Below are positions 19,568-43,218 of a DNA stretch of 64,000 nt, piece after piece (position 1 is the stretch's first letter; each line of letters starts with the position of its first letter). The notes beneath the pieces are model-generated. The model saw only the letters and a program-made list of their open reading frames with translations, was not told the origin of the DNA and made no database searches. The translations under genes and the position numbers were made by a program. The DNA lies in NCBI GenBank assembly GCA_964016885.1, contig OZ024740.1, positions 416,950,001-417,014,000 of the forward strand. The letters run 5' to 3'. This DNA is from Eledone cirrhosa (Eukaryota).

Positions 19568-19579
19568 GATGTGTTGTTA

Positions 19580-19711
19580 TTTATTATGTTGTTATTTATT
19601 ATGAGAACAATACCTTAATGTCTGTATGAGCAGTCAGTTACAGCCATTTTGAACAGAAAGAGTTAAAAGGATTCTGGCCAGATATGGCCGGTTTAAATGC
19701 TAAAGGTTTAA
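19580..19711. mobile_element. Right half of a piggyBac-like MITE, abutting the satellite
   Basis: Matches the right half of the 41313-41597 copy and ends TAAATGCTAAAGGT-TTAA. Confidence 0.75.
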
Positions 19712-19730
19712 AGCTATAAATTTCACTTAC

Positions 19731-19840
19731 TCTACTTGGTGAGAGACACTTCTGAGTATCAAGATCAATCTCACATGCTTCCCCAGTATACTGAGATTGG
19801 CATTTACATTTGCCACAGACACATTTTCCGTGGGTAATAC
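19731..19840 (-). CDS. Integrin beta-like coding exon 13 (I-EGF3/4); last exon in the window
   Basis: (G)ITHGKCVCGKCKCQSQYTGEACEIDLDTQKCLSPSR; ATTTCAG acceptor, GTAAGT donor; no stop codon, so the gene continues past position 1. Confidence 0.95.
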
Positions 19841-22800
19841 CTGAAATAATTAAAGGTAAACTTAATTAAAGGTAAACATAATTAAAGGTAAACATATTAT
19901 GTCAAGAAATCACATGTATACATACACATATTTATATTTCGTCATACTGGGGTTGCTTTCTAGTCATTAGACAAAGCAAAATATATGTTTACCTTTGGCA
20001 CAGGTATGAAAGAAGAAGACATACATACATACATGATGGCTGCAACTCGATTTTGAGTAATACCATCGCTTGATACTTACTTAAGCATGAGCATCACGGA
20101 TGCAGCTTTTTAGTCCTGCTAGGAACTTGCCTATCGCCAGCAATGCCATGCATCGCAAAAAATGTCACATAACATGCGATGCCTGTGCTTAAAGCTTTTT
20201 TTAAGTGAGAAAAGGCTTTGCACAGGACCAATCCCACTTTATGGTCATCAAATGCATTTACCCAAAAAGAAGAACTGGTCTACATCATGCAAATGAAGTC
20301 GCAGGTTTTATATCAGAGTGGACTTCTCCAAGAGAGATGTCTTAATGAAGACCAGGAGCCTCTCGCTCCAGAAAAAAAAAATACATACATACATACATAT
20401 ATTAATGCTAAGATAATGTGAAGACAGTAGCATCATCATCATCACCGTTTTACGTCCGTTCTTCCATGCTAGCATGGGTTAAACTGGTTGTCCTGTTGTG
20501 CGCAGTGTCCAGTCGGCTGACTTTGTCTTGCTCATACGGGAACTGATTCTGGCTTGATTTCTACAGCTGGATGCCCTTCCTAACACCAACCTCATTTACA
20601 GTGAATGCTCGGAGCTTTTTTCCGTGGCGCCCGCACGTCCACTTTACAGTGGGAGGGGGTGGGGGCATATTGTCTATATGCTTTAGCTTCGGTTTGTACC
20701 CATGGGAAGTCGGGTCTTCTGTATTACTGCGTGACGCCAGAAGTCACGGTCGTGTATCATCACCCTTGAGAGGTGCAATTGGGTAAGGTCGGCTTTTATC
20801 ACCTCATCCCTGGTCTTCTTGGGTCTCCCCACTCCACGGCATAGATTAACTAAAAACTGATCCAACCAAGAACTTAACCCTAGCTGGAGAAATTACTGCA
20901 GGTAAATCTAATTAAAATTAATCAAAGAAGAGATATCCAGGTAATAACTTACCTCCACACAAAGAGTTATTATATTTCCTGCAACCCATTCTATTACATT
21001 CACAATATTTCCCAGTGTATTGGTCTCTTTTCAGCTACAACACAAATATAAACTTGCAATAATATCACAGTTGGTCAAATTATATATACATTTGAATGAC
21101 TTCCATCCTTCCATCAGACACTAGAGATGACTGAGGAAGGAAGGGGTGATGACGTGATGCACTAGAGATGACTGAGGAAGGAAGGGGTGATGACGTCACG
21201 CACTAGAGATGACTGAGGAAGGAAGGAAGGGGTGATGACGTGATGCACTAGAGATGATGTCACACACTAGAGATGACTGAGGAAGGAAGGGGTGATGATG
21301 TCACACACTAGAGATGATTGAGAAAGGAAGGAGTGATGATGTCACACACTAGAGATAACTGAGGAAGGAAGGAGTGATCATGTGATGCACTAGAGATGAT
21401 TGAGAAAGGAAGGGGTGATGACGTCAGACACTAGAGATGACTGAGGAAGGAAGGAAGGGGGTGATAACGTCAGACACTAGAGATGATTGAGAAAGGAAGG
21501 GGTTATGATGTGATGCCCTAGAGATGACCGAGGAAGGAAGGGGTGATGATGTCACACACTAGAGATGACTGAGGAAGGAAGGGGTGCTGACGTCACACAC
21601 TAGAGATGACTGAGGAAGGAAGGGGTGCTGACGTCACACACTAGAGATGACTGAGGAAGGAAGGGGTGATGATGTCAGGCACTAGAGATGACTGAGGAAG
21701 GAAGGGGTGATGACGTCAGACACTAGAGATGACTGAGGAAGGAAGGGGTGATGATGTCACACACTAGATGTAACTGAGGAAGGAAGAGGTGATGTCGTCA
21801 CATACTACAGATAACTGAGGAAGGAAGGGGTGATGACGTCACACACTACAGGTAACTGAGGAAGGAAGGGGTGATGACGTCAGACACTACAGGTAACTGA
21901 GGAAGGAAGAGGTGATAACGTCACACACTACAGGTAACTGAGGAAGGAAGGGGTGATGACGTCACACACTACAGATAACTGAGGAAGGAAGGGGTGATGA
22001 CGTCAGACACTAGAGATGACTGAAGAAGGAAGGGGTGCTGACGTCATGCACTAGAAATGATTGAGAAAGGAAGGGGTGATGATGTGATGCCCTAGAGATG
22101 ACTGAGGAAGGAAGGGTGCTGACGTCACACACTAGAGATGACTGAGGAAGGAAGGGGTGATGACGTCAGACACTAGAGATGACTGAGGAAGGAAGGGGTG
22201 ATGACGTCACGGTGGTGGTGGCAACAGCACCACCACCAACAACAACAACTGCAGCAACAACAACAGCACCACCAACAACAACAGCAACTGCAGCAGCACC
22301 ACCACCAACAACACCACCACAACCACAACAGCAACAACAACAGCAACAATAACAGCATCAACAACAACAACAACAACAACTACTACTCTAAACATAATCT
22401 GCAACATTATAACTTTCCAGCCTAGTTACGCCCCTTTACAGTCTGAGTTCAAATCCCGCCGAGGTTAACTTTGCCTTTCATCCTTACGGGGTCGATAAAA
22501 TAAAGTACCAGTAATGTACTGGGTAATTGCTGGCCTTGTGCCTAAAGTAGAAACAATTATAACTCTGAACATTAATGTAGAAATGTGAGAAAGTGTTGCT
22601 ATAGTTATTATATATTTACAATATCAGGTGAACAGTTGCAGGATCCACAGTGACACTTCCCTCGTCCAGAACAAACAAACTGGTCACCACTAGAAAAGAA
22701 AAACAACATTGAAAGATATGTGTTTACCTCCAACATAAGAGCAACAATGATGGGGTCATTCTACTGAAATGGCTTTAAAGAGGCTGTCTGCATAATTGCA

Positions 22801-23582: not shown

Positions 23583-26500
23583 TGCATATATTCATGCATA
23601 TATTCATCCATGTGAAGGTGCATGGCTTAGTGGTTAGAGCATTGGCCTTGCAATCGAAGGTTGTGAGTTCAATTCTCAGACTGGGTGATGTGTTGTTTCC
23701 TTGAGCAACACACTTTATTTCACATTGCTCCAGTTTACTCAGCTGTAGAAATGAGATGATAGGACTGGAGTCCCTATCATTCCACTGCAAAGTGGTCGTG
23801 GAGGTGCCACAGCAAAAAGCACCCAGCCCACAATGTAAAGTGGACGTGTAGGCGGCACAGAAAAAAGCACCCAGCACTCACTGTAAATGAGGTTGGTGTT
23901 AAGAAGAGCATCCAGCTGTAGAAATCAAGCCAGAATCAGTTCCCATATAAGCAAGACATGGTCAGCCAACCGGGCACTGCCCACAACAGGACAACCCGTC
24001 TAACCCATGCTAGCATGGAAGAATGGACGTAAAACGGTGATGATGATGATGATGATGATCAGAAATGACAAGAAAAACACAGCAATGCAAAAACACAAAT
24101 TCTTATTAGTATCATATATATATAAATAGTTGGATTATGTGTTAAAAGATGAAGGTGACTAAATGAGATGAGAAATGGAAATGAATGTGGAAGAAAGAGA
24201 AGACACAGAGAGAAATGGTTAAAGATGATGGGAGAGGAAATGAAAGTTTGGGGTTGAGACAGTGTACTCCTCTTCTTTGCTATACACAACTGACACCTTT
24301 TAGACTTATTTGAATAGGCCAGGATCTTCTCAAGATGTTATATTTGATGGAGAAATGTGTGTTGCTATCCTTAAACCTCCAGATGTGACTGGCAAGTTTA
24401 GTATTGGATCACTTGTTTGAGTACCTGAAGGTCATCTTGTAGTTTAGGAATTTTTTTTTTAAAACTGCTTTTTGATATTCTCACGTAAGTCTTGACTTGT
24501 TGTTTGTTTGGTAGGGTTGAGATGACCTCAGCCTTGTATATCACAGATGCTACATTTCATGTTCTATCAAGGAGGCATACCTCCAATCTGTTGCATGAGT
24601 CAATCTGGTGTGGAGATCTTGGGTTTGTTGATGAAATAAGATCTAGCATTTCCACCACAGGAATAACTGGCCATTTTCTGTTAAATATCTTTCTATATTT
24701 ATGGCCGACAGGGACATGCTTGTCTATAAGAGTTAAGAACCTTTTTCTGGCATTAGTTTTAACATTTAGTGAGAAGCAGCATATAAAGCATATAATTTTT
24801 CTAGATCTATTTTTATTATTTTTAGTATCATAAAGGCAGTGAATTAGCAGTATCGGTAGAGGGTTGGACGCCATGCTTTCTAGCATAGTTACGTCCCCTT
24901 ACAGACTGAGTTCAAATCCTGCCAAGGTTAATTTTGCCTTTCATCCTTACGGGGTCGATAAAATAAAGTACCAGTAATGCACTGGGTAATTGCTGGCCTT
25001 GTGCCAAAAGTAGAAACAATTATTTCTAGTATCATATGATATATATGGTATGGTATTGTAACCTCTGATGGAGTCATAGAGTCACCTTATTGACATACCG
25101 CATTTCTTAGGCATTTAAAGCCTGGCAGAGCCCCTCTCCTCTCCAGGTCTACATTTTGTTCTCTTTAATCATATCTTGTGATGACAATTGTTGATGAGCA
25201 AAACAAAAGCAAAGCACATTCATAAAAAAATAGTAAATTTCTGTTAAAACACAGCACAAACATTTTATTTTGGTGTTGTTTAAAACAATAGGATAAAACT
25301 GTTAAATAAAGAATATGACTTACGGTTTCATACAATTTCTCTCATCAATGTTCTGAGATTTTGGACATTCACAATTTTTTCCATGCATTTGCTTTGAACA
25401 TTCACATTGTCCACATACAATTTTACCATTTCCATTGCAATGAAATTCACTGTTATTCTGAAAACAAGAGATATAAAAATATATGGGTCATTAAGAGAAT
25501 ACATGTGTAAGAGTATGTTATTGTTTTTACATATAATAGATTTGGGATTTATAAAAAATTTATTAGTTTTTACTATGTATTTTGTATTTATTTCTATCTT
25601 TTTTCTTTATTTTCTAGATGTTTTCTTTGTGTTTGTTAGAAACATCCAGAGAATGATTCATTATGAACATTCCTGGAATTAAATGGTAAACTAGATAAAA
25701 ACTGTGATTTCAAGCAAGACTAAACACAATTAGTCCAATTAAGTATTGCTACAACCTTCTTACTATTTTAATTTCTTGATTGATTGCACACCTGGTGTGA
25801 ACTTAAATGACAAACTATTTGAATTCTGTTTCAAAAAAAGAGGTAGAAGTGTTTTTTGGACTAAAATTAGTTGAAATAAAGTCTTGTTGTTGTTTTTGTT
25901 TCTTTGTTTTAATGTAATTAGAACTAAATTATTCATTTTGAAAAAACAACAGCAACATACCTTTTGAAAAATAAGTACTTTTAATTGTTGTTTAATTCCA
26001 GGTCAGCCCGGTTAGAACAGACCTAGAATCAAAGGTATTCCTGAGTTAAAAGTCTAAAGTTTGTCTCAAGCCTGGAGGCTCATCAGGCCAGTATTTATCT
26101 CAGTTTCTGTGGTGTGAAGTGACTAAAAGTACAAGACTTCCCTCTGGACAAGCCGTCACTCCATCATAGGGTTAAATTCACAGCCTCTACTAGTATTTAT
26201 TTTCAGCTGAGTATACTGGATCAACGAGAAATGAAGTGTTTTGCTCAAGAACTCAACAAGTGAACCCATGACATTATGATCATAAGTCCAACACCCTTAC
26301 CACTAGGCCACATGTCTCCACATTCCAGCCATAAACAGTTACACATTGTTTTTGAAGATATCTAGAACTACATTATCTAATGTAAGACTTCTTTTATTTT
26401 TAAGATGATGAGCAATCAAGAGATCACAGCTCTGATAATATGGATATGAGGCTAGAATGTCTAAGGAAAAAATTGCTGAACAGATTTTATGGGCAAAGCC

Positions 26501-29500
26501 AACTGGCAGGAGACCCAGAGGTAAACCATGAGCAAGATGGTTGGATAACATCCTCGTGCTCAGGTGGTTTGGCTTGGGGATCCAGCTGTATCATTTGGAG
26601 ATGGTTGCTTCTGACATGACTCTCAGGTACGTGTGTCTGAGGACTCTTCCCCAGCAGCCCTCCCAGGAATAAGAGGGCCAGAAGAATAAGGGGGAGGTGG
26701 GAATGATTTGAGGAAAGTTTTACTGCTATTTCTAACATACTGAACCATAATTTAAAGCAGCAGTTCCCAAACTTTTTTTTTTTTACTCATGGCACTCTTT
26801 AAAACAAGTAATAATATTTTGGCTCACATAGCATCTAAATTTGGAAATCCATTCAAAAGAGGCATTTATATATATTAGCATAACATGAAGTAGAAATATG
26901 GTAAGGTCCATGGCACAAAAAAGTTGGGGACTGCTGGCTTATAGTACATAAATGAAAGACAGAAAACACATTTAAATTTGAGAATAATGTGAAATTATAC
27001 TTAACTGTTGGTTTCTTTAATTCACAATCACAGTGGCATTTAGTTTTGACATATATAATCATTTGGGGTTTCTTGATGCCTTTAACAAAAACTTTGATCC
27101 TAGAAAAAAATATAATTTGAGAATTATAATTATAATACAGAAGGAAAATGTTTCTTTTTAAAAAGATAAGTCATATCAGTCATATATCTTTTCCTTCTCT
27201 ACTCACTTATTCCTGAGAGGGTTGTGAGGTCAGAGTCCTCAAACACTCCTTGCAGTTGGCCCTGTCAGAAGCAACTCTCTTCAACTGATCTGGCTGGATC
27301 TCCAAGCGAGAGCAGCCAAGCTCATATATGTTATCCAACCATCTTGCTCGGGGTCTACTCCTGGGTCTCCTGCCGGTTGATTTTGCCCATAAAACCTGTC
27401 CAGTGATTCTTTCCTGAGACAGTCTAACCCCATGTCCGTAATATCAGAGCTGTGATCTCTCAATTTGGAGAAGTGGCTTTACCTGGAGTGTTTGACAAAG
27501 TGAGTGACCAGTAAACTACTGAACTAAATGTTGAGTTTAAAAAGAAATATTAAATAATAAAACTATCATAAAAATGAAAACATTTGGCAAACTTACAATT
27601 TTTTCTTGGTGAAACACAATTCTGTGCTGATTATGAATGAGAATGTTACCTGAAATGAGAAAAATTATGGATGGCAGTAATTCTTCAAACACCGAACCTG
27701 ACCAAGATAGTCTCATGGAAAGACCAAATGAGATTTATTTTTCAACATAGTCCCTAACTATGAAGGAGCGATGCTAGAGCTGTGGAATCTTGCATGCATT
27801 AATTTCAACTCTTCTTATTAATAAATAGATTGTTTCTTTCTAGGGACTATTTATTAATAAGAAGAGTTGAAATGAATGCATGCAAGATTACACAGCTCTA
27901 GCATCGCTCCTTCATAGTCAGGGATTATGTTGAAAAATAAATCTCATTTGGTCTTTCTATGAGAGTATCTTGGTCAGGTTATGAACTTCTCAGCTGACCT
28001 CTATATCTTTCAATCTCTCTCCATAATAGTCCTCATCTTTAAATTAAATCTCCTTCAACACTAAACATCAACCTTGAGGAAATACTCCAAAAGGGAGCTC
28101 TAATGAAACTAAACAGATAGGGATGCAGTTCTAATGACTTCAAGGTCTGTAAACAAATAAAACAAAGGATCCTTATTTATTCTCTTCACAATCTCTATTT
28201 TCACATTGAGATTCAGTGAGTGAATTTTCATCCAAAGTTTAACCCTTTAGCATTTAAACCGGCCGTATCTGGCCAGAATTCTCTCACCTCTTTCTGTTCA
28301 AACTGGCCCCAACTGACCCCTCAGACCAACTTTAAGGTGTTGTTCTTAAAATAAATAATATCAAAATACCATATATTCAATAGTATGTAAGATATTATGT
28401 AAGATAAAGCCTTTACTGTGAAAATATAATAGTTTATATAGAGTAATGTAAATGCTAAAGGGTTAAACATTTCAAAGGATTTCACTTACTCCTAGCCCAT
28501 CATGGATGCCATAACAAGAGGATGTTTCTATTTGTGATTGATACCTAGAAAATGAGAAAAACTCCATTAATGATAAATATTATTTTCATGCTCAGAATTG
28601 AAATAGAAACTGAAGCTTCACCGTAACATTCACTAAATAATTGTTTCTACTTTAGGCACAAGGCCATCAATTATTCCAGTGCATTACTGGTACTTGTGAA
28701 GGTGCATGGCTTAGTGGTTAGAGCATTGGGCTTGCAATCAAAAGGTTGTAAGTTCTTGGACTGGGTGATGTGTTGTTTCCTTGAGCAAGACACTTTATTT
28801 CACGTTGCTCAGCTGTAGAAATGAGATAATAGGGACTGGGGTCCCTATCATTAAATTACCCAAGACACCTCCAACGAGAGGCCAGCTAAACCTGCATAGG
28901 TGTGAGCTGTCACACACGTGCATTACTGGTACTTTATTATATAAACTCCATAAGGATGAAAGGCAAAGCTAACCTCGGTGGGATTTTAACTCAGATCGTA
29001 AAGGGCCGTAACTCTATGCTGCAAAGCATGGCGTCCAACCATATACCGATACTGCCAATCCACGACCTTGCCAATTGGTTTATGATTTAGGCAGAAGGTC
29101 AACAATTTTGAAGGAGGGGAAAGTCGACTAAATCGACCCCTGGGACATATAAACCCACTGAACGCCCCATTATTAGACTATATTATTTAGTCAATGTTAC
29201 AGTGAAGCTTCTATTTCTATTTCCTCACTCACCACATTCCAAACATACTTCTTTTATTTTCATACTGTTTTACATCCAATTTTCCATTATAATATTGGCA
29301 GGAAAGGTTACAACAGAGTTCTTTTGTTGGAACTACTGATAGAAGAGCAGAACTTCTTTGTCAACCAGACTAATTGAGTTAAGTAGAATTATTGTTTTAC
29401 AAAATTTTGGTTATAAGTTGTCAAATTACTGCTCATGGTGATATGGTTAGTAGTCCAATATATTTATTTCATAGTCATTATACTTTATATTCATCATCAT

Positions 29501-32500
29501 TGTCATTTTTACATCCATGTTTACATGCTGTTGGATGTGTTGGATATATTGTTTGGAGACAATGTTTTACAGTCAGATGCCCTTCCTGATGTCAGGCCTT
29601 TAGTTGCCTCATACATGCAAGGATATGATGTACATATTCTAAAAAACAGCATATTCAAATTTTTATAATAAACTTTGTGATTTATTTTATTTTAGCAAAT
29701 GTGTAAACATGAAATATACAGGAAATTTGATTTGAAAATCATTTCAAATGACAAAACAAAAAAGCAGTATAATAAAATAGATTGTACTTACTTCTTATTG
29801 CAGTCACTTTTCATTATTACTTTCAGAGGTTTTGGAGCATTAGCAAGCAAGGAGATATCCTTTGTAAAGGAATAAAACAAGATACATTTTCTACTAAATT
29901 TTGATTTCAAAAGTTATTGTTAAAAAGAGGTTTTCAAATTCAACAAAATATTAAGATGTTTTGAGAACTGTTCAAATATATAACTGTATTTGATGACTGT
30001 TAAAATATATAACTGTATTTGAATACTGTTAAAATATATAACTGTATTTGATAACTGTTAAAATATATAACTGTATTTGATGACTGTTAAAATATATAAC
30101 TGTATTTGATAACTTAAAATATATAACTGTATTTAGTAACTGTTAAAATATATAACTGTATTTGATAACTGTTAAAATATATAACTGTATTTGATAACTG
30201 TTAAAATATATAACTGTATTTGATAACTGTTAAAATATATAACTGTATTTGATAACTTAAAATATATAAATGTATTTAGTAACTGTTAAAATATATAACT
30301 GTATTTGATTACTGTTAAAATATATAACTGTATTTGATAACTGTTAAAATATATAACTGTATTTGATAACTGTTAAAATATATAACTGTATTTGATAACT
30401 GTTAAAATATATAATTGTGAATTTATAGAATTTTATTTACAGTTTTATAAATAACATTACAAATTGTTTATAATTCTAACAGAATGAAAATATAAAGTAT
30501 AAACACAAATAATTGTTTCTACTTTAGGCACAAGGCCAGCAATTACCCAGTGCATTACTGGTACTTTATTTTATCGACCCCGTAAGGATGAAAGGCAAAG
30601 TCAACCTCGGCGGGATTTGAACTCAGATCGTAAAGGGACGTAACTATGCTGGAAAGCATGGCATCCGAACCTCTACCGATACTGCCAATCCACCCGTATA
30701 AACACAAATAATGGTTTCTGATTCAGGCACAAGGTCATCAATTTTGGCGGGAGGGGAAGTCGATTAAATCGACCCTAGTGCATGACTGGTACTTTATTTT
30801 ATCAACCTTGTAAGGATGAAAGGCAAAGCTACCCTCACCAAGATTTGAACTCATAACAAAGTGCCATAACTATGCCGCAAAGCATGTTATCCAATGCTCT
30901 ACCGATACTGTCAATCCACCGAAAATAAACACAAATAATAAATACAATTAATTATTGCTAGGAACCTCACAAATATAATGCACAAAAATATAACGCACAA
31001 ATATAATGCACAAAAATATAACGCACAAATATAACGCACAAAAATATACGATCAAAACGAGAGAAAGAAAAACAAACAAAAACAGCCATCAATTCACCAC
31101 CAAGTGTGACAATCGGCCACGCATCACAAGGGTCAATGGAAATTTTTGAAGCAATGAATATATTATTTTAACCCTTTAGCATTTACATTACTCTATATTT
31201 ACTATTGTTTTTTCGTGGTAAAGGCTTTATCTCACAAAATATCTCACATATTATCGAATATATGAGATTTTTATATTATTTATTTTGAGAAAACTACATT
31301 AACATCACTATGAGTGGCCAGTTACTACCAGTTTGAACAGAAAGAGGTGAGATAATTCTGACTGGATATGGCCAGTTTAAATGCTAAAGGGTTAAAGTAA
31401 ATAAAATAAATACTGGGGTCAATTTAATCGACCCTACTCTCAATATAAATATGTGGTCTTGTGCTAAAGTCAGAAAACATTATTTTAAAATAGAAATACA
31501 TGTTATAATAGAACCATATATATAGAACTTATATATAAGTTACAATTGCAATATCCATTATCAAAGATTTACTGCACTAATTCTTAACATCCTGTACCCA
31601 GGGCTGGATTTAAAAGGGGGCAAAGGGAGCAGTTGACCTGGGGCCCTTGTGGTAAGGGGCACAAGCGATGGCCATAGCAATTTATTTGTGCCCTCAGCTG
31701 GACTTTTTAGTTTTATGATGGTTAGATTTTTTTAATTTAATACCTGTATGTATAACTTTTTAATTCCAATTACTTACGCCAAGCTAACTTTGATATGTAA
31801 AATTAGAGGTTTGTTGTGCATGTTACTTTTTTTCTGTATGAAATCCCCCCCCACCCCCCCCCCCACCCCAAAAAAAAACATGAAACACCCTGCGCCCTTC
31901 AATGTCTAAATCTGGCTCTTCCTGTACCACATGAAACCGCATTAGCAAGACATTCTTTAAAAAGTACAAAACAGCCTTTTGAATAAATCTTTACATTAGT
32001 TTAGAGCAAATTTTCACCAACATCTTTCCACTAATAATTGTTTTTACTTTTGGCACAAGGCCAGCATTTGCTAGTGTATTACTGGTACTTTATTTTATCG
32101 ATCCTGTAAGGAGGAAAGGCAAAGTTAACCTCGGCGGGATTTGAACACAGAATGGCAAGGGCCATAACTCTAAGTGTCAAAGCATGGCATCCAACCCTCT
32201 ACCTATACTGCCAATAATGATACTATAAACATTGAATTAACAAATACATTTTAAAATATTTTCTGATTAATCATTTCGAGTTATTAAGAGTTAATGAGAA
32301 GACTAGCAAAAGTGGTGTATGTTATTGTTGTTGTTGTTGTTTAGCCTCAGGTCAACATGGGTAAACTTATGATGAAAAGTGTTCCAGTTGTGACCATCCC
32401 AATTTCACTGACTATGTTATTTGATCTTTCCTTTTCTTTGTTTCATTTAAGATATCCAATAAAGTGTTGCATTACATCTCTTCGTGCCAAAAAGGTAAAA

Positions 32501-35500
32501 CTTAGCCGTATGATAAACTGAGATTGATAAAATAAATATTAGGGTTGAGATAATCAATTAAAACCCATGAAGGTGTTGCTCCAGCATAGCCACAGTCAAA
32601 GATTATTAACCATCTTTCCAACAACAACCCTGAGCATCTTTTTGAATTCCATATGCCAAACACCCGTGGACATGCCTTCAAAGTCAGGAAATAGCACAAC
32701 TTCCATGACTTTCAGAAATATTTTTTCACTCTCAGAGTTGCTGGAGCATGGAACAAACTACCTGCATCAGTTGTTAACTGTTGAAACACTGCATCCTTCA
32801 AAACTTCCATGCTTCCCGAAATTTGCCAACATTACATTTGATATTCCCCACGCATGTGTTTGTGTGTCTGTGTGTGTATTATTGATTCATACACTGTTCA
32901 CTTTCCTGATATTTGTACATTATTTTATGTACTATACATGCACTTTGATGAGTTGTAGTGCACCTGAGTACTGTACACAATAATTTTCATTATTAAATCA
33001 TTAAAACCAGTAAAACAATACAACAATAAAGGAATATTAGTGAAAACAGTTTTTACTTACAGCTCCTAAATGGTTGTTGGTATCTTTTGGGATTAAAAAT
33101 CCTTTTACAGGCAAAACATAACCAGTGTCTAGAAAATATGTTAATATAACTGTTAAATAGACAGACAGGTAGATATAGATAGATAGATGTCTTGCATGAA
33201 AAACAGATTAAAAAATTTTGTGTCTAAATTAGGAAGAATTATGAACCTGTTCTTATATTGTTCATTTCAAATTGATGAAAGGCAGGGGCAGGTTTTAAAC
33301 TCAGACATTCAACCAAATACAACTGTAAAGTAATTATTCTATTTCTTTACCTCATTTTAATTATCATAATGAAAAAAAAAGAGAGAAACTTACTGGGTAC
33401 AAGTTGCAGAAAAACTCTTTGAGGTTTCAGAATTCTTTTCTTTGAAATTCTTCTATTCTGCAAAATAAAGAACAAAAAAATCTCTAACAAAAAGAAACTA
33501 TAAATTTCTCTTTTTTTTTTATTTTTAATAAGTTAGTGAAGAAAAGAGAGCCATGCTCTTGAACTTTCCAAATTTTCCTTAATGGTGGGATTTCCTTAGA
33601 GGCTGATGTTTGCAGAGGGAAAATTGTCTAAAAGTCTAAAATCTGCCTCAGGCTTGGAGGTTCACCAGGCCGGTGCTTATCCTGGTTTCTGTAGCATGAA
33701 GTGACTGAGAGTACAAGACTCCCCGCTAGACAGAACACCAGTCCATTGCAAGGTTAAACCCCCAGCCACTTCTGGTACTCATTTTCAGCTGAGTATACTG
33801 GAGCAACATGTGATGCAGTGTTTTGCTCAAGAACACAACACACAACCTAGTCCAGGAATCAAACGCATGACATTATGATTGTAAGTCCAACACCCTTACC
33901 AGTAGGCCATGTGTCTCCACTATGAAAATCTAGAGGCAAGAAGAAATTTCAGAGCGTTGTAGTTCTGGAGTGCAAGAACTGGGGAAAATGTTTTGTGCAG
34001 ATTCTGGAGACCAGTAAAGAGGAAGAGAAATGGAGAGAGAGGGTGGGCCTGGGTGGAGAGGATATATAGAACCAGTTAATGGGGGGGGGGGTAGAAGCAT
34101 TTTTTACTAGCTTAACCAGAAGGGCCATCTCTGAGACTGGTGGGAGGGATAGGAGTGGAGTTATCTTCAGTCCTAACCCAAATGCTTGCAAGTGAGTGGA
34201 CTCTACTAAAAGCACCCAAAGGCTAGGTGGTGGTTGGATTTCTTGTTGGTAGGATTCAAGCAACATATTAAGTCTACCATCTTGCAACTGTATTTTCCCT
34301 CTGACAGGATTCTACTATGTTTCTCCTCCATTAACCAAATTTGCTTGATTGACCTGTGGCTATAGTAGAAGACACTAACCCAAAGTTTCCCAACCTGGGT
34401 AATATTGCCTACCAGTGGATGATTCAACTGTTGGGTGGGTGATAAGCAGCTGGACATAAAATGGTGGGCAGTTGAAAATTTTGGTGGACAATATAGAATT
34501 TTGAGTATTAAGAAAAAATATTCAAAGGAGATATGCAAAGAACCTGTATAAAACAAAACAGGAGGCTAAATAGGAATAACAAACCGGTAACAAACTTTTA
34601 CTAAACATATTTGGTATGCTTTTGAATATTACTATATAGATGAAAGGTTGTCAATGTGAAAGTGAGCGATGACATAAAAATGGTTGGGAAGCCCTGTACT
34701 AACCCAAAGTGCCAGGTAGTGAGGTTGGACCCAAAACAACTTAACTGCAAATCAAATGTCTTAAACACACAATCATTGTAAAGATAAAATGATTGTTGCA
34801 TGTTGGTGAAAGAATCAATGTAAATCAGTTAAACAACATTTAATATAAAATACAGTGCAGTATATTTGTGGTCTTACTTGAGCTTTGTAGTCTTCAACTG
34901 TTCATGGTTTATTTTCTGGCCTTAGACTTTGTAACCTAATCTTTGTGGTGAAATTTTGACAATATTACAAATGTAGGACCACCATTAGAGATCATCATAG
35001 ATTTTGATAACTAGATTTTGTGACACCTTTGATGTTTTATTTAAGAGTGTGCAGATGTGTAATAGATTTCACTGGTTGGCACTGGATGGTCTTTGTGGTG
35101 TCCCAGTGTCTCAGTGTCTGTTTGGTATGTCACTCAGTGAACTAATGATGCGTAATATATGCTCATTCAAGCTGAGCACCTAGCTTCTCTCAGTTAGAAG
35201 ACTGACCTGCCAACATGTGGTGAAAAGCCACATGCTACATGAAGTACCTCTGCTATCATAGGAAAATCTAGTAGAACAGGTCAGATCTAAAAGAGTAAAC
35301 CTCAATAAAAAATCCTGTTTGTCTGATATTTATGTATTTAGATAGAAATATTTGGCCTGATAATTAGCTTTATGTAGAATCTCTTTCACTCACCTTCCGT
35401 AAATGAGCTTCATTCACAGACTGGTAAATTGAACTTTCAGAACAGCCTTCTCTAAGTAGAGTTCCTTTCGTTTCACATCTTGAGCTACCATGGAAATCCT

Positions 35501-38600: not shown

Positions 38601-41600
38601 TCTGCCCCAAATGCAAACAATGGGTACACAAGAGATGTAGCGGGATCTCAGGAAGCTTAATTAAGAATGTAGGCTTCACATGCAGCAGCTGTACTGGGAC
38701 AGCAAGCAGCAAACAGCCACAGGAAACAAGTACCACCAATCTCGGGGGGGGGGGGGGGGGGGGGGCTCTGTAGAGACAGTAGACAGCTTCTGCTACCTAG
38801 GTGACCGAATTAGCAGCGGAGGTGGGTGTTCAGAAAGTACAATAACTAGGGTAAGAACGGGATGGAAGAAGTTCAGGGAACTACTACCACTGCTAGCTGC
38901 AAAAGGCTTCTCCCTCAAAATGAAAGGCAGACTGTATGATGCGTGTATCCGAACAGCGATGTTGCATGGTAGTGAGACCTGGGCGCTGAAGGTGGAAGAC
39001 TTCCGTAGATTAGAGAGAAACGAAGCCTGCATGCTCCGATGGATGTGTAATAGTAATATACGCGAACGACAAAGCATAAATGAATTGAGAGAGAGACTGA
39101 GCATAAGAGGAATCAAATGCTGTGTGCAGGAGAGGCGGTTGCGCTGGTATGGACATGTGATGCATATGCAGGATGACAGCTGCATAAAAAGGTGCAGAGC
39201 ACTAGAAGTCGATGGAAACCGCGAAGTGGGGAGACCCAAGATGACCTGGGATGAGGTGATAAAAGCCGACCTTACCCAATTACACCTCTCAAAGGCGATG
39301 ACACACGACCATGACCTCTGGCGTCACGCAGTAATACAGAGTACCCGACCTCCCATGGGTACAAGCTGAAGCATATAGACAATATGCCCCCACACCCTCC
39401 CACTGTAAGGTGGTTGTGGAGGTGCCATGGCAAAAAAGCACCCAGCCCACACTGTAAAGTGGACGTGTAGGCGCCACGAAAAAGCACCCAGCACTCACTG
39501 TAAATGAGGTTGGTGTTAGGAAGGGCATCCAGCTGTAGAAATCAAGCCAAATCAGTTCCTGTATGAGCAAGGCATGGTCAGCCGACCAGACACTGCCCAC
39601 AACAGGACAACCCGTCTAACCCATGCTAGCGTGGAAGAACGGACGTAAAACGGTGATGATGATGATGATGATGATATATATATATATATATATATATATG
39701 ATATAATATTTATTTATGTTCATACATGGAACAAAGGTTTCAAAAACCTAAGGTTTCAAGGTACAAATTTGACCATACCTCCAGAATACAAGAGACATCA
39801 AAATAGTGACCTTTCTTCAGGTGCTAATACAAGTTTATTTGGTTATTTTTAAATTTAATAAAAAAAATTTCAAGTTTTGATGTATAGCATAAAACCCATG
39901 CAGTGACTTACTGGAGAAAGACACCAGCTACATGTTCCATTACGTTGTATACAACTCCCACATGTCTTCACATTTCTGCAGTCATTGCCAGCAACTGAAG
40001 TGAAAGAAGATATGACAAAAATATATATTGTTAATTATTTATAAATTTATTTTTAATTCAAAAGTCTTCATACATCAGCAATTGACAGAAATCTTACCAA
40101 ATCATTCATCATCATCATCATCAACATTTAACGCCTACTTTCCCTCCTAGTAAGGGTTGGACAGGTCTACATAAACCAAGTCAGTTCTGAAGTAGGGCTA
40201 CTGATCTTCCAGACAGGCTGAGAGGTCAGTATTCTGCTTACATATGGTCATATCCCATACAGAGTAGAAGTTTTGTGTCTTTTGATAAAAATTGAAGAGT
40301 CTTCTCAACCCCTTGTTTGGCAACATTCTATGACTAGATGCCCTTCATAACACCAACCACTTTACAGTATGCATTGGGTACTTTTATTGTGTAGGTCAAC
40401 CATACTAGGGAGATTGTCATGTCCTTGACACAACTAAAGGGTCCTCCCAACCCTTTGTATGGCAAACTTTCTATGGCTATATTCCCTTCATAATACCAAC
40501 CACGTTACAGCATTTACTGGGTGATTTTAGTGTGTAGATCACCAATTGTGTCTTTGACACAACCAAAGGATCCTCCAAATACTTTTATTCATAGTTTCTA
40601 TTGCGGTGTGTTCTTCCTGGTAATTATGTTGTTAACAATAGTGGGGTGAGTTTTAAAGATAATCTCAACTGGATTTGGACTTGGTATCTTACCAGATAGC
40701 AAGATGACTTCATCACCACGACATTCATATCTTTCTCATAAAAGAGAAGTAACTGAAATAGCTACAACCAAGAACCAAACCAAGGTCATTGACCTCAGTT
40801 TTGGGGGTCTTTACTATTTAAAATTGCCACTCATAATTAACAATAGAGATTAGAATGTTGAATATATGGTACAATGACAGAAATTTGGGTATAACGAATA
40901 TAGCTGAAGGAATCTAATTAGAAAGTAAAGGGATGTAACCAGAGGCGTAACTAAGGAAAATAGCGCCTATGGTAACCAGTGAAATTGTGCCCCTGTTCAA
41001 ACATCTGACAGATAACCACAAAATCAGCTCAAAAATACCAATCACATTCATTGATTTTATTTGAAAACAATATCTATGGGCCTAATGATTTATATAAATG
41101 GTTTAATAATCCAGCCACCATAATGCTTCTCCCCCATGATAATCAAAGACAGATCATACATCTGAATAAGTTTCTTTTCTCACTCTCTGATGATAGCTTA
41201 TCTGATGATAGCTCATCCTTGCCATACTCTAGTACACTTCTAGATGTAACTAAATATTATAGTTGTTTGGTCATCCCATGACTAATTCTGCCAATCCACC
41301 ATTCTCATTAGCTTAACCCTTTAGCATTTACATTACTCTATATTTACTATTATATTTTCATGGTAAAGGCTTTATCTCACATAATATCTCACATAACATT
41401 TACATTACTCTATATTTACTATTATATTTTCATGGTAAAGGCTTTATCTCACATAATATCAAATCTATAAGATTTTGATATTTATTTTGAGAACAATACC
41501 TTAACATCAGTATGAGTGGCCGGTTACAGCCTGTTTGAACAGAAAGAGGTGAGAGAATTCTGGCCGGATACGGCCGGTTTAAATGCTATAGGGTTAAACA

Positions 41601-41672
41601 GTAAACATAAAACTTACCGTTATATACAAGAAGGCATATTAGCAAAAGACAAAAGCTTAGTTGGTTTGACAT
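19731..41672 (-). CDS. ITGB: Integrin beta subunit-like gene, 13 coding exons, 3'-incomplete in this window; signal peptide-PSI-hybrid-I-EGF1-3(4), apparently lacking the beta-I domain
   Basis: Manual join (minus strand) of 41618-41672, 39912-39994, 35394-35498, 33394-33457, 33061-33128, 29792-29859, 28490-28544, 27597-27649, 27006-27099, 25324-25457, 22620-22689, 20953-21034, 19731-19840. All introns are GT-AG with matching phases. Protein: MSNQLSFCLLLICLLVYNVAGNDCRNVKTCGSCIQRNGTCSWCLSPDFHGSSRCETKGTLLREGCSESSIYQSVNEAHLRKNRRISKKRILKPQRVFLQLVPNTGYVLPVKGFLIPKDTNNHLGADISLLANAPKPLKVIMKSDCNKKYQSQIETSSCYGIHDGLGVTFSFIISTELCFTKKKLIKVFVKGIKKPQMIIYVKTKCHCDCELKKPTNNSEFHCNGNGKIVCGQCECSKQMHGKNCECPKSQNIDERNCMKPGDQFVCSGRGKCHCGSCNCSPDILKRDQYTGKYCECNRMGCRKYNNSLCGGITHGKCVCGKCKCQSQYTGEACEIDLDTQKCLSPSR. 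The symbol is family-level only. Confidence 0.92.
20432..20835 (-). mobile_element. 3' fragment of the RTE LINE family
   Basis: Reverse complement of the 39225-39673 region; encodes VGRPKKTRDEVIKADLTQLHLS and has the (GAT)n tail. Confidence 0.9.
20953..21034 (-). CDS. Integrin beta-like coding exon 12 (I-EGF2/3)
   Basis: LKRDQYTGKYCECNRMGCRKYNNSLCG(G), the classic GKYCEC...C...CGG motif; TTGTAG acceptor, GTAAGT donor. Confidence 0.95.
21119..22211. repeat. 41-bp minisatellite, about 26 copies
   Basis: Unit CACTAGAGATGACTGAGGAAGGAAGGGGTGATGACGTCACA. Confidence 0.97.
22212..22387. repeat. (CAA/CAG/CAC)n microsatellite
   Basis: Imperfect trinucleotide run; the poly-Q/N ORF here is an artefact. 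Confidence 0.9.
22620..22689 (-). CDS. Integrin beta-like coding exon 11 (I-EGF2)
   Basis: (P)GDQFVCSGRGKCHCGSCNCSPDI, the classic CSGRGxCxCGxCxC motif; TTTTCTAG acceptor, GTAAAT donor. Confidence 0.95.
22837..23022 (+). mobile_element. tRNA-derived SINE, family A (partial copy also at about 22425-22560)
   Basis: A box TGGCAGTATCG, B box GTTCAAATCC, core CCTTTCATCCTTA.GGGGTCGATAAA. Confidence 0.85.
23613..24058 (+). mobile_element. tRNA-derived SINE, family B, with RTE-derived 3' tail
   Basis: A box TGGCTTAGTGG, B box GAGTTCAATTC, CCTTGAGCAA core; tail matches the RTE 3' UTR at 39400-39673 and ends in (GAT)n. Confidence 0.9.
24330..25200 (-). mobile_element. Degenerate Penelope-like retroelement fragment (RT to GIY-YIG linker), interrupted by a family A SINE at about 24835-25020
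   Basis: [33 protein letters not shown] and downstream VIYKAEV resemble the conserved Penelope linker upstream of the GIY-YIG endonuclease; stops and frameshifts are present. Boundaries are approximate. Confidence 0.7.
25324..25457 (-). CDS. Integrin beta-like coding exon 10 (I-EGF1/2)
   Basis: NNSEFHCNGNGKIVCGQCECSKQMHGKNCECPKSQNIDERNCMK; TTTTCAG acceptor, GTAAGT donor. Confidence 0.95.
26052..26322 (-). mobile_element. tRNA-derived SINE, family C (also about 33632-33920 minus, 42005-42275 plus, 56155-56445 minus)
   Basis: Head TGTGGCCTAGTGG and TTCTTGAGCAAAACAC core; distinct 3' end GGCCTGATGAGCCTC...TTTAGACTTT. Confidence 0.75.
26410..26690 (+). mobile_element. Degenerate RTE-type LINE 3' end
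   Basis: Translates with stops to RSQL..YGY..RM...EQILWAKPTGRRPRGKP..RWLD. Confidence 0.7.
27006..27099 (-). CDS. Integrin beta-like coding exon 9 (hybrid end, CxCxC)
   Basis: TTTTTCTAG acceptor; (L)IKVFVKGIKKPQMIIYVKTKCHCDCELKKPT. The donor GTTAAG is weak and was chosen because it gives the required phase 0. Confidence 0.85.
27205..27490 (-). mobile_element. Degenerate RTE-type LINE 3' end, inverted relative to 26410-26690
   Basis: Reverse complement shares GAGATCACAGCTCTGATA and GGGCAAA.CAACCGGCAGGAGACCCAG with the 26410 copy. Confidence 0.7.
27597..27649 (-). CDS. Integrin beta-like coding exon 8 (hybrid)
   Basis: ATTTCAG acceptor; VTFSFIISTELCFTKKK with the VxFxxxxxxxxC pattern; donor GTAAGT. 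Confidence 0.88.
27695..27980. repeat. 134-bp-arm inverted repeat built from a mariner-type MITE sequence
   Basis: Arms 27695-27828 and 27847-27980, 6 mismatches by manual alignment, 18-nt loop; related sequence at about 44620-44945, 57050-57110 and 58530-58925. Confidence 0.93.
28239..28466. mobile_element. piggyBac-like MITE
   Basis: TTAA-CCCTTTAGCATTTA ... TAAATGCTAAAGGG-TTAA: terminal inverted repeats with TTAA target duplication. Confidence 0.88.
28490..28544 (-). CDS. Integrin beta-like coding exon 7 (hybrid)
   Basis: TTTTCTAG acceptor; (K)YQSQIETSSCYGIHDGLG; donor GTAAGT. Confidence 0.88.
28638..29062. mobile_element. Family A SINE (minus) with a family B SINE (plus, 28696-28917) nested inside
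   Basis: The insert is flanked by a 17-bp duplication GTGCATTACTGGTACTT (28679-28695 and 28918-28934). Confidence 0.88.
29792..29859 (-). CDS. Integrin beta-like coding exon 6 (hybrid C-half)
   Basis: Polypyrimidine tract then AAG acceptor; DISLLANAPKPLKVIMKSDCNK; donor GTAAGT, phase 2. Confidence 0.88.
29966..30416. repeat. 29-bp AT-rich minisatellite, about 15 copies
   Basis: Unit AACTGTTAAAATATATAACTGTATTTGAT. Confidence 0.96.
30508..30920 (-). mobile_element. Two tandem family A SINEs
   Basis: Reverse-complement copies of the GGATTGGCAGTATCGGTAGAG...GAGTTCAAATC...GCCTTTCATCC family. Confidence 0.88.
31168..31395. mobile_element. piggyBac-like MITE
   Basis: Same TTAA-CCCTTTAGCATTTA terminal inverted repeats. 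Confidence 0.88.
31599..31920. mobile_element. hAT-type MITE
   Basis: Perfect 8-bp target duplication CCTGTACC (31591-31598 and 31921-31928); imperfect inverted termini CAGGGCTGGATTTA / TAAATCTGGCTCTT. Confidence 0.8.
32033..32215 (-). mobile_element. Family A SINE
   Basis: Same head and core as the other family A copies. Confidence 0.85.
32600..32995 (+). mobile_element. CR1-group LINE 3' fragment
   Basis: Translates TRGHAFKVRK*...YFFTLRVAGAWNKLPASVV, the typical CR1 ORF2 C-terminus, followed by a 3' UTR. Confidence 0.8.
33061..33128 (-). CDS. Integrin beta-like coding exon 5 (end of hybrid N-half plus short linker where beta-I normally starts)
   Basis: TTTTCTAG acceptor; (N)TGYVLPVKGFLIPKDTNNHLGA; donor GTAAGT; phase 1-0 fits both neighbours. 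Confidence 0.85.
33394..33457 (-). CDS. Integrin beta-like coding exon 4 (hybrid domain, first strands)
   Basis: TTTTGCAG acceptor; NRRISKKRILKPQRVFLQLVP corresponds to the QxxPQxxxLxLRxG motif; donor GTAAGT. Confidence 0.9.
35394..35498 (-). CDS. Integrin beta-like coding exon 3 (PSI domain, C-terminal part)
   Basis: DFHGSSRCETKGTLLREGCSESSIYQSVNEAHLRK matches RCxxxxxLxxxGC of integrin beta PSI; AAG acceptor; donor AAG|GTGAGT; phase 0-0. Confidence 0.92.
36000..36236 (+). mobile_element. RTE 3'-UTR tail fragment (also 55040-55235; diverged copy at about 54620-54990)
   Basis: AAAAGCACCCAG...AACCCATGCTAGCATGGAAG...(GAT)n. Confidence 0.85.
37275..39673 (+). mobile_element. 5'-truncated RTE-clade LINE, frameshifted; reverse transcriptase plus PHD-like finger
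   Basis: RT motifs KGKGD...NYRGI, QFGF, FVDLEKAFDRVP, GVHQGSVLSP, LLYADD; C-terminal RRLRWYGHV; frameshifts near 38250, 38520 and in the poly-G at 38744-38765; (GAT)n tail; flanked by (TA)n. Antisense within an integrin intron. Confidence 0.96.
39912..39994 (-). CDS. Integrin beta-like coding exon 2 (PSI domain, N-terminal part)
   Basis: TTCACTTCAG acceptor; (V)AGNDCRNVKTCGSCIQRNGTCSWCLSP with the CxxC...CxWC PSI signature; donor GTAAGT. Confidence 0.93.
41313..41597. mobile_element. piggyBac-like MITE with an internal duplication of about 70 bp
   Basis: TTAA-CCCTTTAGC ... GCTATAGGG-TTAA; the block CATTTACATTACTC...CACATAATATC occurs twice. Confidence 0.88.
41618..41672 (-). CDS. Integrin beta-like coding exon 1 (start codon, signal peptide)
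   Basis: GGAACCATGT start context; MSNQLSFCLLLICLLVYN hydrophobic core; donor G|GTAAGT, phase 1. The exon probably extends as 5' UTR to an acceptor at 41922 (TTTTATTTTCAG). Confidence 0.85.
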
Positions 41673-42849: not shown

Positions 42850-43218
42850 TACCTAATGTTGAGTTGAGTCTGACTTATGTTGAGTTGAGTCTACCTTATG
42901 TTGAGCTGAGTCTGACTTATGTTGAATTGAGTCTACCTAATGTTGAGTCTACATCATATTGAGTTGAGTCTATCTTATGTTGAGTCTATCTTATGTTGAG
43001 CTGAGTCTACCTTATGTTGAGTTGAGTCTGACTTACGTTGAGTTGAGTCTGACTTACGTTGAGTCGAGTCTGACTTACGTTGAGTTGAGTCTGACTTATG
43101 TTGAGTTGAATCTGACTTATGTTGAGTTGAGTCTGACTTTCATTGAGTTGAGTCTGACTTATGTTGAGTTGAGTCTGATTTATGTCGAGTCGAGTCTACC
43201 TTATGTTGAGCTGAGTCA
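42850..43218. repeat. 21-bp minisatellite
   Basis: Unit TTATGTTGAGTTGAGTCTGAC. Confidence 0.93.

Follow-up and report, generated by a model that had tools for sequence, protein, structure and literature searches.

A conserved beta-I-less integrin beta derivative, predicted to be secreted, in the cephalopod Eledone cirrhosa

The beta-I domain supplies both the Mg-dependent ligand binding of integrins and the pairing of the beta subunit with the alpha propeller. Integrin beta is customarily defined by this domain, and surveys of the family select on it. A 64,000-nucleotide stretch of the Eledone cirrhosa genome (GCA_964016885.1, contig OZ024740.1, positions 416,950,001 to 417,014,000; henceforth the window) carries a gene in which a first-pass annotation, made from the letters of the sequence, had read an integrin beta subunit without this domain. 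This raises the question of whether such a headless gene is a genuine and intact member of the family and, if so, what kind of protein it might specify.

The gene has 37 coding exons spread over ~214 kb, with 173 kb of it lying beyond the window edge, and a single open frame across these exons predicts a product of 977 aa, bearing out the intact frame claimed earlier. The 13 exons within the window (41672 to 19731, minus strand; Table 1) join without a stop and have GT/AG ends in every case. The motifs quoted in the first-pass annotation all lie on the minus strand where it had placed them, the seven PSI cysteines and the hybrid cysteines are kept as it claimed, and the 29-bp repeat that it named in intron 5 is real. 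The domain order runs from a signal peptide (a hydrophobic N-terminus, called by judgement) through PSI, a closed hybrid and 16 I-EGF domains to a beta-tail and then the stop, with an EGF2-3-4 module present five times in the I-EGF array. All 132 Cys residues are common with O. vulgaris, and the cysteines are canonical in every leg domain save one I-EGF4 disulfide, both cysteines of which are lost together—a loss common to chiton and limpet. No RGD motif occurs in the window protein. A search of the E. cirrhosa genome for additional paralogues lacking beta-I, with exon 10 as the query, gave one match, and the same genome has at least five canonical integrin beta loci.

Table 1. Features of the headless integrin beta gene, in window coordinates except for exons 14-37.
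Feature	Position	Strand	Remarks
Exon 1: start codon and signal peptide	41618..41672	-	78% identity to O. vulgaris N-terminus
Exon 2: PSI first part, 5 Cys	39912..39994	-	matches beta3/beta2 PSI in PDB profile search
Exon 3: PSI second part, 2 Cys	35394..35498	-	
Exon 4: first hybrid strands (PQ strand)	33394..33457	-	end phase 1; intron at matching place in canonical paralogue
Exon 5: hybrid strand and short linker	33061..33128	-	end phase 0, GTAAGT donor
Intron 5, 3.2 kb, rich in repeats	29860..33060	-	beta-I remnant absent
29-bp tandem repeat, 16.5 copies, within intron 5	29945..30418	.	
Exon 6: start of second hybrid half	29792..29859	-	AAG acceptor, phase-0 start
Exon 7: hybrid domain	28490..28544	-	
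Exon 8: hybrid domain	27597..27649	-	
Exon 9: hybrid end and CxCxC link to I-EGF1	27006..27099	-	
Exon 10: I-EGF1	25324..25457	-	
Exon 11 (70 nt): I-EGF2, opens repeat module 1	22620..22689	-	
Exon 12 (82 nt): I-EGF2/3	20953..21034	-	
Exon 13 (110 nt): I-EGF3/4, final in-window exon	19731..19840	-	
Intron 13, 5' part	1..19730	-	~97 kb in total; nearly all 37-bp satellite
Exons 14-37, outside window	C1 416872482 to 416776889		remainder of module 1, then four further modules, beta-tail and stop

The junction between the two halves of the hybrid domain is where the beta-I domain is missing. Exon 5 is homologous to the canonical exon that continues into the beta-I domain (DYPVDLYY...), but in the headless copy it stops after ~23 codons, and exon 6 has the phase-0 start of the canonical post-beta-I exon, but ~4 codons further in; the direct phase-0 splice between them (33061 to 29859), as originally read, was confirmed. 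In canonical betas six further beta-I exons occupy the place of intron 5. A beta-I HMM derived from 43 canonical betas found no match in this intron, agreeing with the earlier claim that beta-I exons are missing from it, and over 384 kb (the window with 280 kb on its downstream and 40 kb on its upstream side) it returned only one noise match, at E 8.7 inside the 37-bp satellite; as a positive control, the same HMM recovers 7/7 beta-I exons of the canonical paralogue on C19. With nothing beyond this noise match from the HMM in these 384 kb, the relocation of the beta-I domain to a nearby position was rejected.

In the cephalopod headless proteins, 53 aa separate the PQ strand and the first hybrid cysteine, compared with 247-301 aa in the 43 canonical betas and 48 aa in an engineered beta-I-deleted human beta2 fragment. 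The Pfam profile PF00362 (beta-I/VWA with the DxSxS MIDAS) does not score on P0001, P0002 and P0003, with the control P0032 at E 5e-108. Thus, of the Pfam outcome expected in the first-pass annotation, the absence of PF00362 held, whereas the anticipated PSI_integrin match did not, this profile being silent on the cephalopod proteins; it scores on the Solemya, Liolophura, Tachypleus and Trichinella relatives, and in the PDB profile search the PSI and hybrid match those of beta3/beta2. DNA contigs from three runs of one sample cover both splice flanks (32966-33687 and 29565-30022); none spans all of intron 5, the contigs being short and the joints dominated by repeats. Judged by its sequence, the gene is genuine and intact, an integrin beta derivative without beta-I that is unable to use a MIDAS.

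The opposite end of the protein also departs from the canonical plan. Exon 36 closes in phase 1, and the stop comes four codons into exon 37; at this intron the canonical C19 paralogue continues into its TM exon instead. The two genes also agree in the positions of the introns flanking beta-I and of the one that precedes the TM exon. The beta-tail aligns to beta3 and beta1 as far as the last Cys in the PDB profile search, and Pfam Integrin_B_tail gives no score on the cephalopod copies. Following the suggestion that TM and NPxY exons be sought beyond the window, we found neither a TM helix nor an NPxY tail anywhere in the gene, including its outlying exons. Orthologues in three other genera have the same C-terminal end, with a maximal 19-residue hydropathy beyond residue 60 of no more than 1.2 in orthologues. 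Because the stop sits where canonical betas start the TM helix, the gene product is most likely a long secreted rod, not a receptor. A membrane receptor was rejected on this ground, and the 'stand-alone receptor' that had been offered as one option fails with it.

The orthologues, which the first-pass annotation had proposed to look for, were recovered from Octopus, Argonauta and cuttlefish, together with relatives from other molluscs. Junction and end are identical in the proteins of O. vulgaris, O. sinensis, Argonauta and cuttlefish, and the junction recurs across four genera whose assemblies are independent. At the protein level, at which conservation was measured, the head (residues 22-210) is more conserved than the stalk, with head versus whole-protein identities of 82 vs 76%, 73 vs 64% and 60 vs 48%. 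A cuttlefish cluster comprises seven full-length 983-aa sequences on 117 Logan contigs, each of at most 3,972 bases; these mRNA-sized contigs show a spliced transcript for the orthologue in cuttlefish, not in E. cirrhosa, for whose stretch no RNA data set was listed, a blank that counts neither for nor against expression. A 128-aa member of the cluster runs into an intron exactly at the exon 5-6 junction. In the databases, the O. sinensis copy is automatically labeled tenascin-X, and the C-terminal half of the O. bimaculoides protein and the Haliotis and Mytilus relatives carry the label ITGBL1.

An AF2 model of the N-terminal 379 aa of the O. bimaculoides orthologue (pLDDT 92; 85-88 at the junction) has the closed hybrid sandwich that had been anticipated. 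It matches beta-I-deleted beta2 legs with no large gap in Foldseek (5E6V, TM 0.78 by target; 2P26, 0.71), a fold match that is not independent of the solved structures because the AF2 alignment contained canonical betas and the engineered beta2 fragment. At the level of the model, a PSI-hybrid head is shown to be foldable with a closed hybrid. The full 976-aa protein, modeled from a 4-row alignment, reached pLDDT 36, and this model was not used. The hybrid carries a net charge of +8 to +18 in eight of the nine mollusc beta-I-less rows, of -3 to +3 in the 12 non-mollusc beta-I-less rows, and of -8 to +8, with a median of +1, in the 62 canonical ones; these rows are not independent of each other. 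P0026, which has a beta-I domain, was counted among the canonical rows, and P0025, an engineered beta2 construct, is a control and not a natural relative. The basic charge cannot explain the whole beta-I-less class because it is absent in the non-molluscs and weak in Solemya (+3 only).

Beta-I-less relatives were found in chitons, bivalves, gastropods, nematodes, the horseshoe crab and the sardine, and a TM helix and tail is present in none of 18 beta-I-less proteins. On present sequences the headless architecture spans the molluscs and turns up again in other phyla, with the PSI, hybrid and beta-tail surfaces kept throughout the mollusc classes. ESM Atlas searches returned I-EGF-type clusters only, and the Atlas cluster of the nematode proteins has 103 members. 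A single origin of all beta-I-less proteins was rejected, a rejection that does not extend to the mollusc-nematode pair; the trees are quick trees and leave out P0187 (Mercenaria), which has I-EGF and beta-tail repeats without a PSI-hybrid. It is possible, though short of an even chance, that a 'headless and footless' integrin beta arose repeatedly through coupled loss of the beta-I domain and the TM-tail, at least in molluscs, nematodes, chelicerates, insects and fish, that the mollusc family is one, dating from before the chiton-conchiferan split and bearing a basic ligand-binding hybrid tip, and that these proteins are overlooked natural integrin modulators.

Comparison with known systems places the headless protein more precisely. 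It shares the PSI-hybrid-I-EGF-beta-tail order and nearly all cysteines with canonical betas (beta1, beta2, beta3, betaPS, PAT-3), and its best PDB sequence matches are beta3, beta1 and beta2. Unlike them, it is without the beta-I domain, MIDAS, TM helix and NPxY tail, and has 16 I-EGF domains instead of 4, one I-EGF4 disulfide fewer and a basic hybrid. The engineered beta2 legs (2P26, 5E6V, 5E6W) have the same PSI-hybrid-I-EGF layout, with the hybrid halves joined by a short linker, and match the headless protein in a single stretch by both sequence and structure, but they are laboratory constructs, whereas the headless gene is natural and conserved. Vertebrate ITGBL1/TIED, a secreted, beta-I-less and TM-less integrin beta derivative with an expanded I-EGF array, resembles it in all of these traits, secretion of the headless protein being predicted; to our knowledge, ITGBL1 lacks a PSI, hybrid or beta-tail. 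Compared by description, ITGBL1 has ten I-EGF repeats, whereas the headless protein has those three domains and EGF2-3-4 triplet repeats. The contrast initially drawn with ITGBL1 holds for these domains but is smaller than stated, both proteins being stand-alone legs with expanded I-EGF arrays, ITGBL1 secreted and the headless protein predicted to be so. The sequence searches brought up no vertebrate entry bearing the name ITGBL1, and orthology of the mollusc gene to vertebrate ITGBL1 appears unlikely.

The nematode 'integrin beta-like' proteins (e.g., the Trichinella 'putative integrin beta-like protein', and C05D9.3, which we take to be the database name of the C. elegans representative) likewise have PSI-hybrid-I-EGF with no beta-I domain or cytoplasmic tail. 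They differ in having no beta-tail, a hybrid that is not basic, and an acidic or S/T-rich stalk at the end, with a terminal hydrophobic run that by eye resembles a GPI signal. The TM and tail are also missing from the zebrafish integrin beta1 paralogues beta1tr-1/2/3, in which the PSI and hybrid are well conserved and the A domain is degenerating (Mould et al. 2006, PMC1538996); they differ from the headless protein in keeping the beta-I (A) domain with MIDAS residues, in having no beta-tail and in having four I-EGF domains. The beta1tr state is a plausible intermediate toward the headless form.

We propose, with a probability of roughly 0.45, that the gene encodes a matrix-tethered, ITGBL1-like secreted integrin leg that damps canonical integrin adhesion through a basic polyanion-binding tip. 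An integrin beta gene would have been duplicated, and the copy would have lost its beta-I exons and acquired a stop at the beginning of the TM exon; later, in coleoid cephalopods, the five-exon I-EGF2-3-4 module would have been repeated to five. The product would be a secreted disulfide-rich rod, extended over some tens of nm, with the PSI and closed hybrid at one end, 16 I-EGF domains, and the beta-tail opposite. Mg-dependent ligand binding and normal alpha-propeller pairing would be absent because the beta-I domain supplies both. The freed, strongly basic PSI-hybrid tip may bind polyanions such as heparan sulfate, retaining the protein within the matrix or on cell surfaces, where this long beta-leg mimic could damp adhesion by canonical integrins as reported for ITGBL1, described as a secreted integrin inhibitor (PMC8921176). 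The likeness to ITGBL1 is one of analogy only; the ITGBL1 repeats are not the PSI-hybrid tip of the headless protein.

Other readings have to be weighed against this proposal. The same secreted rod might act independently of integrins, as a haemolymph opsonin or as a matrix component with a structural or adhesive role, its basic tip binding acidic matrix or microbial surfaces and its I-EGF array serving as a spacer as in tenascins. The basic head, the lack of an integrin-binding motif in the protein, the fivefold stalk extension, which suits a spacer, and the automatic tenascin-X annotation in O. sinensis make this a reading to be taken seriously, if a rather doubtful one; the surfaces of the PSI, hybrid and beta-tail kept across mollusc classes, however, fit integrin-leg contacts as well as a structural role. 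Leg-leg pairing with an integrin alpha, in which the hybrid, I-EGF and beta-tail would contact the thigh and calf, making the protein a dominant-negative partner or export chaperone in a non-signalling complex, seems improbable. All leg domains are kept with their canonical cysteines except the I-EGF4 pair, and the canonical beta loci in the genome, at least five, imply that alpha partners are present, but the principal alpha-beta interface, beta-I against propeller, and the TM clasp are both missing, and, with its 16 EGF domains, the leg is four times too long to match an alpha subunit.

It is barely credible that the locus is an artefact or relic, whether a normal integrin beta shortened by a deletion in the assembly, modelled with exons skipped, or decaying as a pseudogene. 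Such an account could draw on the lack of a DNA contig across the whole of intron 5 and on certain other beta-I-less entries in the databases (the fish and insect-like rows) that could be faulty models. Against it stand the junction itself, seen identically in separate assemblies from four genera and on cuttlefish contigs of mRNA size, the open 37-exon frame, the conservation of the head above the stalk, and the paired I-EGF4 cysteine loss common to chiton and limpet. A pseudogene or assembly artefact is thus largely refuted by the shared junction, open frame and conserved head, and the original judgement that this is no pseudogene stands.

We found no description in the literature of a natural PSI-hybrid-I-EGF protein without a beta-I domain; an earlier mention is possible, especially for nematodes, as subscription journals and supplements were thinly covered. 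The headless class would have been invisible to an oyster integrin survey, because candidates were screened with PF00362 and those without a TM were discarded (PMC7390872). Further, the annotations 'pat-3', 'tenascin-X', 'beta-2' and 'ITGB1', corrected here, inflate or mislabel cephalopod integrin counts. Stand-alone beta legs had been known as engineered constructs and, minus the PSI and hybrid, in the form of ITGBL1. The headless genes show that evolution can use the PSI-hybrid-I-EGF-beta-tail leg as a unit in its own right, and they would provide a natural tool for asking what the beta leg binds in the absence of the head. They also suggest a route by which ITGBL1-like proteins may have arisen, from a canonical beta through TM loss, as in zebrafish beta1tr, to beta-I loss and then EGF expansion.

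The motifs named in the first-pass annotation lie on the minus strand at the positions it claimed, and splicing the window's 13 exons (41672 to 19731), all bounded by GT/AG, preserves the reading frame. Its claim that the 3.2-kb intron 5 holds no exons for beta-I, the ligand-binding VWA domain (PF00362) set between the two hybrid halves of canonical integrin betas, was borne out: a beta-I HMM derived from 43 canonical betas had no match there, and gave a single noise match (E 8.7) over the window and its flanks (280 kb downstream, 40 kb upstream). As a positive control, this HMM recovered 7/7 beta-I exons of the canonical paralogue on contig C19, a normal E. cirrhosa integrin beta gene; blastn of these exons against intron 5 returned only chance matches of 9-22 bases. 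A PF00362 search of the E. cirrhosa genome gave at least 11 matches at a minimum of five loci, on C2, C13, C19 (two loci) and C26, and none on C1, the contig of the gene under study, among the matches listed. At G000 C19:1.86-1.88 Mb (L049-L051) lies a divergent canonical beta with a TM helix, whose MIDAS motif is DISKT instead of DxSxS, resembling the database protein P0073; its ligand binding is possibly altered.

Features of the window around the beta-I-less integrin beta gene
Feature	Window position	Strand	Remarks
Exon 5	33128-33061	-	ends in phase 0
Exon 6	29859-29792	-	start of the second half of the hybrid domain
37-bp satellite	1-19567		intron 13; takes up the window's first 19.5 kb
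41-bp minisatellite	21119-22210		intron 11; about 27 copies in two arrays
Broken LINE-type reverse transcriptase ORFs	37267-39366	+	intron 2; pieces of 329 and 234 aa, antisense to the gene
Likely 5' UTR stretch	41673-41920	-	good splice acceptor at about 41921
21-bp minisatellite	42856-43217		upstream of exon 1; about 18 copies

The acceptor beyond the likely 5' UTR leads us to expect a non-coding first exon further upstream. The satellite in intron 13, an intron of about 97 kb, is the source of long spurious minus-strand ORFs. At 33071, in the linker part of exon 5, three runs from one sample each include one contig with C instead of T. By hand translation this turns the linker His into Arg, the residue of all aligned orthologues; the difference is probably allelic.

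Tracing the gene outside the window (G000:C1:416950001-417014000) on neighbouring stretches, with the O. vulgaris orthologue as guide, gave 37 coding exons (G000:C1 416991672 to 416776889) that together encode 977 aa, 132 of them cysteines, in a single open frame. The domain order is signal peptide, PSI, hybrid, I-EGF1, repeat modules and beta-tail. Each module, made of exons of about 70/82/110/87/38 nt, encodes I-EGF2-3-4 and a linker, and is present five times, the last copy lacking the linker, for 16 I-EGF in all. Behind two beta-tail exons, the terminal exon contributes four codons before its stop; the corresponding phase-1 intron of the canonical C19 paralogue precedes an exon continuing into the TM helix. 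Since a motif scan of the next 107 kb also revealed no TM or NPxY exon, the product is predicted to be secreted, and the stand-alone receptor offered earlier as one option falls away.

Orthologues of 976 aa (O. vulgaris and O. sinensis) and 983 aa (Argonauta and a cuttlefish cluster that includes a Sepia pharaonis fragment) share the junction and end a few residues from the last cysteine; the O. bimaculoides annotation is in two pieces of 379 and 604 aa. As anticipated, none of the three proteins scanned scored on PF00362. Identity to O. vulgaris, Argonauta and cuttlefish is 76%, 64% and 48% over the whole protein, as would fit an octopod, and higher in the head (82%, 73% and 60%). The seven full-length sequences of the cuttlefish cluster come from 117 Logan contigs, each of at most 3,972 bases and too short to hold the introns, which thus represent spliced transcripts. 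In a 128-aa member the sequence leaves for V-S directly after the linker, as expected if it reads into the GTAAGT donor at the exon 5-6 junction.

The architecture reaches beyond cephalopods, further than first supposed. A phmmer search of 1.84 billion representatives with a 275-aa cuttlefish head fragment gave 278 matches, of which 150 were listed; 22 of these were chosen for a continuous PSI-to-EGF match, and names were obtained for 10. They come from the molluscs Solemya, Liolophura (two genes), Haliotis rubra, Mytilus and Lottia, and from Tachypleus, Auanema, Trichinella and Sardina. The Mytilus relative is backed by models of five species and mRNA-sized contigs, that of Tachypleus by RefSeq isoforms and a 1.7-kb contig. 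From PQ strand to cysteine, 26 beta-I-less rows span 45-58 aa and 43 canonical ones 247-301 aa. Both anchor motifs were present in 67 of the 150 listed matches; among these 67, a TM helix followed by at least 30 residues was found in 0/18 beta-I-less proteins (P0021 and P0084 among them look cut short and are uninformative) versus 36/49 beta-I-bearing ones, the 13 canonical misses being taken as scored. By eye, the nematode and Tachypleus members have a short C-terminal hydrophobic run resembling a GPI signal. Bivalves show other rearrangements of the integrin leg: P0187 (Mercenaria, 771 aa) has repeated I-EGF/beta-tail units but neither PSI-hybrid nor TM, while a duplicated I-EGF4/beta-tail unit occurs in P0035 (Mytilus, 619 aa). 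I-EGF-bearing ESM Atlas clusters whose most frequent phylum is Chordata (345 aa, 53 members; 622 aa, 98 members) or Arthropoda (446 aa, 128 members) may hold further beta-I-less families; the two Chordata clusters persist once PF00362 clusters are removed.

In trees based on the shared leg columns minus the junction, nine mollusc rows fell on one side of a branch with SH-aLRT 96 (83 rows, LG+G4), and seven on one side of a branch with support 93 (34 rows). A mixture model (44 rows) put the support of the mollusc branch at 86, the branch then enclosing one long canonical row, and two mollusc rows were flagged for composition bias. We therefore regard mollusc monophyly as likely but short of proof; it is backed by two derived characters. 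One I-EGF4 disulfide has lost both cysteines in 6/9 mollusc rows and is kept in 61/62 canonical rows; Haliotis lacks the first cysteine, the second lying beyond its trimmed row; both are retained in Solemya and Mytilus, and both are missing in Tachypleus too. The hybrid net charge is +8 to +18 in 8/9 mollusc rows versus -8 to +8 in 62 canonical rows. A mollusc plus nematode grouping (support 83) is neither shown nor rejected. Beta-I-less rows from fish group within fish beta1, and the insect-like ones with insect betaPS; these could include gene-model errors. A single origin of all 16 beta-I-less rows was rejected (constrained grouping, p-AU 6e-80).

An AF2 model of the N-terminal 379 aa of the O. 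bimaculoides orthologue (69-row alignment; pLDDT 92, pTM 0.74) places a short loop between strands 104-113 and 125-132 at the junction (pLDDT 85-88). In Foldseek, this predicted head matches the engineered beta-I-deleted beta2 legs 5E6V (233 columns, TM 0.78 by target, rmsd 3.5) and 2P26 (TM 0.71) with no large gap, in line with the closed hybrid domain foreseen earlier; full integrin ectodomains need about 600 columns. As the input alignment held canonical betas and the engineered fragment, this indicates compatibility with the fold, not independent proof. In the canonical C19 paralogue, one exon holds the last hybrid strand and the beta-I start, six more complete the domain, and a phase-0 intron, present at five canonical loci, follows helix alpha7. 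Exon 5 matches the first canonical beta-I exon in start position and phase but ends after about 23 codons, and exon 6 is the counterpart of the post-beta-I exon, with its start shifted inward by about four codons. Most simply, the domain would have been lost through a deletion from within the first beta-I exon up to the phase-0 intron; from the sequences, the short linker could be assigned with no confidence to either end of beta-I.

Our literature search found no description of a natural beta-I-less PSI-hybrid-I-EGF architecture, while databases already contain such proteins under automatic names, e.g., 'integrin beta-like'. In zebrafish, the beta1tr paralogues have neither TM nor tail, and their A domain is degenerate whereas PSI and hybrid are conserved (PMC1538996); C05D9.3 is entered in a localisation table with its domains not described (PMC3096668). 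PMC7390872, PMC3531407 and PMC4030831 were also consulted. The gene product resembles ITGBL1, which is reported to interfere with canonical integrins (PMC8921176), in general plan, but keeps PSI, hybrid and beta-tail. By function it is not a canonical integrin beta, as two defining features are absent, while its descent from the family stands.

Beta-I contains the MIDAS as well as the main interface with alpha; talin and kindlin bind to the integrin beta tail. Lacking both, the protein cannot act as an integrin receptor, and the observed pairing of the two losses agrees with this reasoning. Residual pairing with an integrin alpha leg, by a product without the main alpha interface, seems improbable. 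An artefact is hardly credible beside the open frame, the junction common to other genera and the cuttlefish spliced transcripts, which uphold the earlier view of a real, conserved gene. An integrin-independent structural or opsonic role is a tangible possibility for what both losses would leave, a secreted leg. Our preferred reading, to which we give a probability of roughly 0.45, is that this leg may be a matrix-tethered integrin modulator; we infer all its functional steps.

The gene is real, conserved and more widespread than first thought, and its predicted product is a secreted leg, not a receptor. As a modulator, its basic tip would bind polyanions and so tether it to the matrix, where the leg would interfere with canonical integrins, as reported for ITGBL1.
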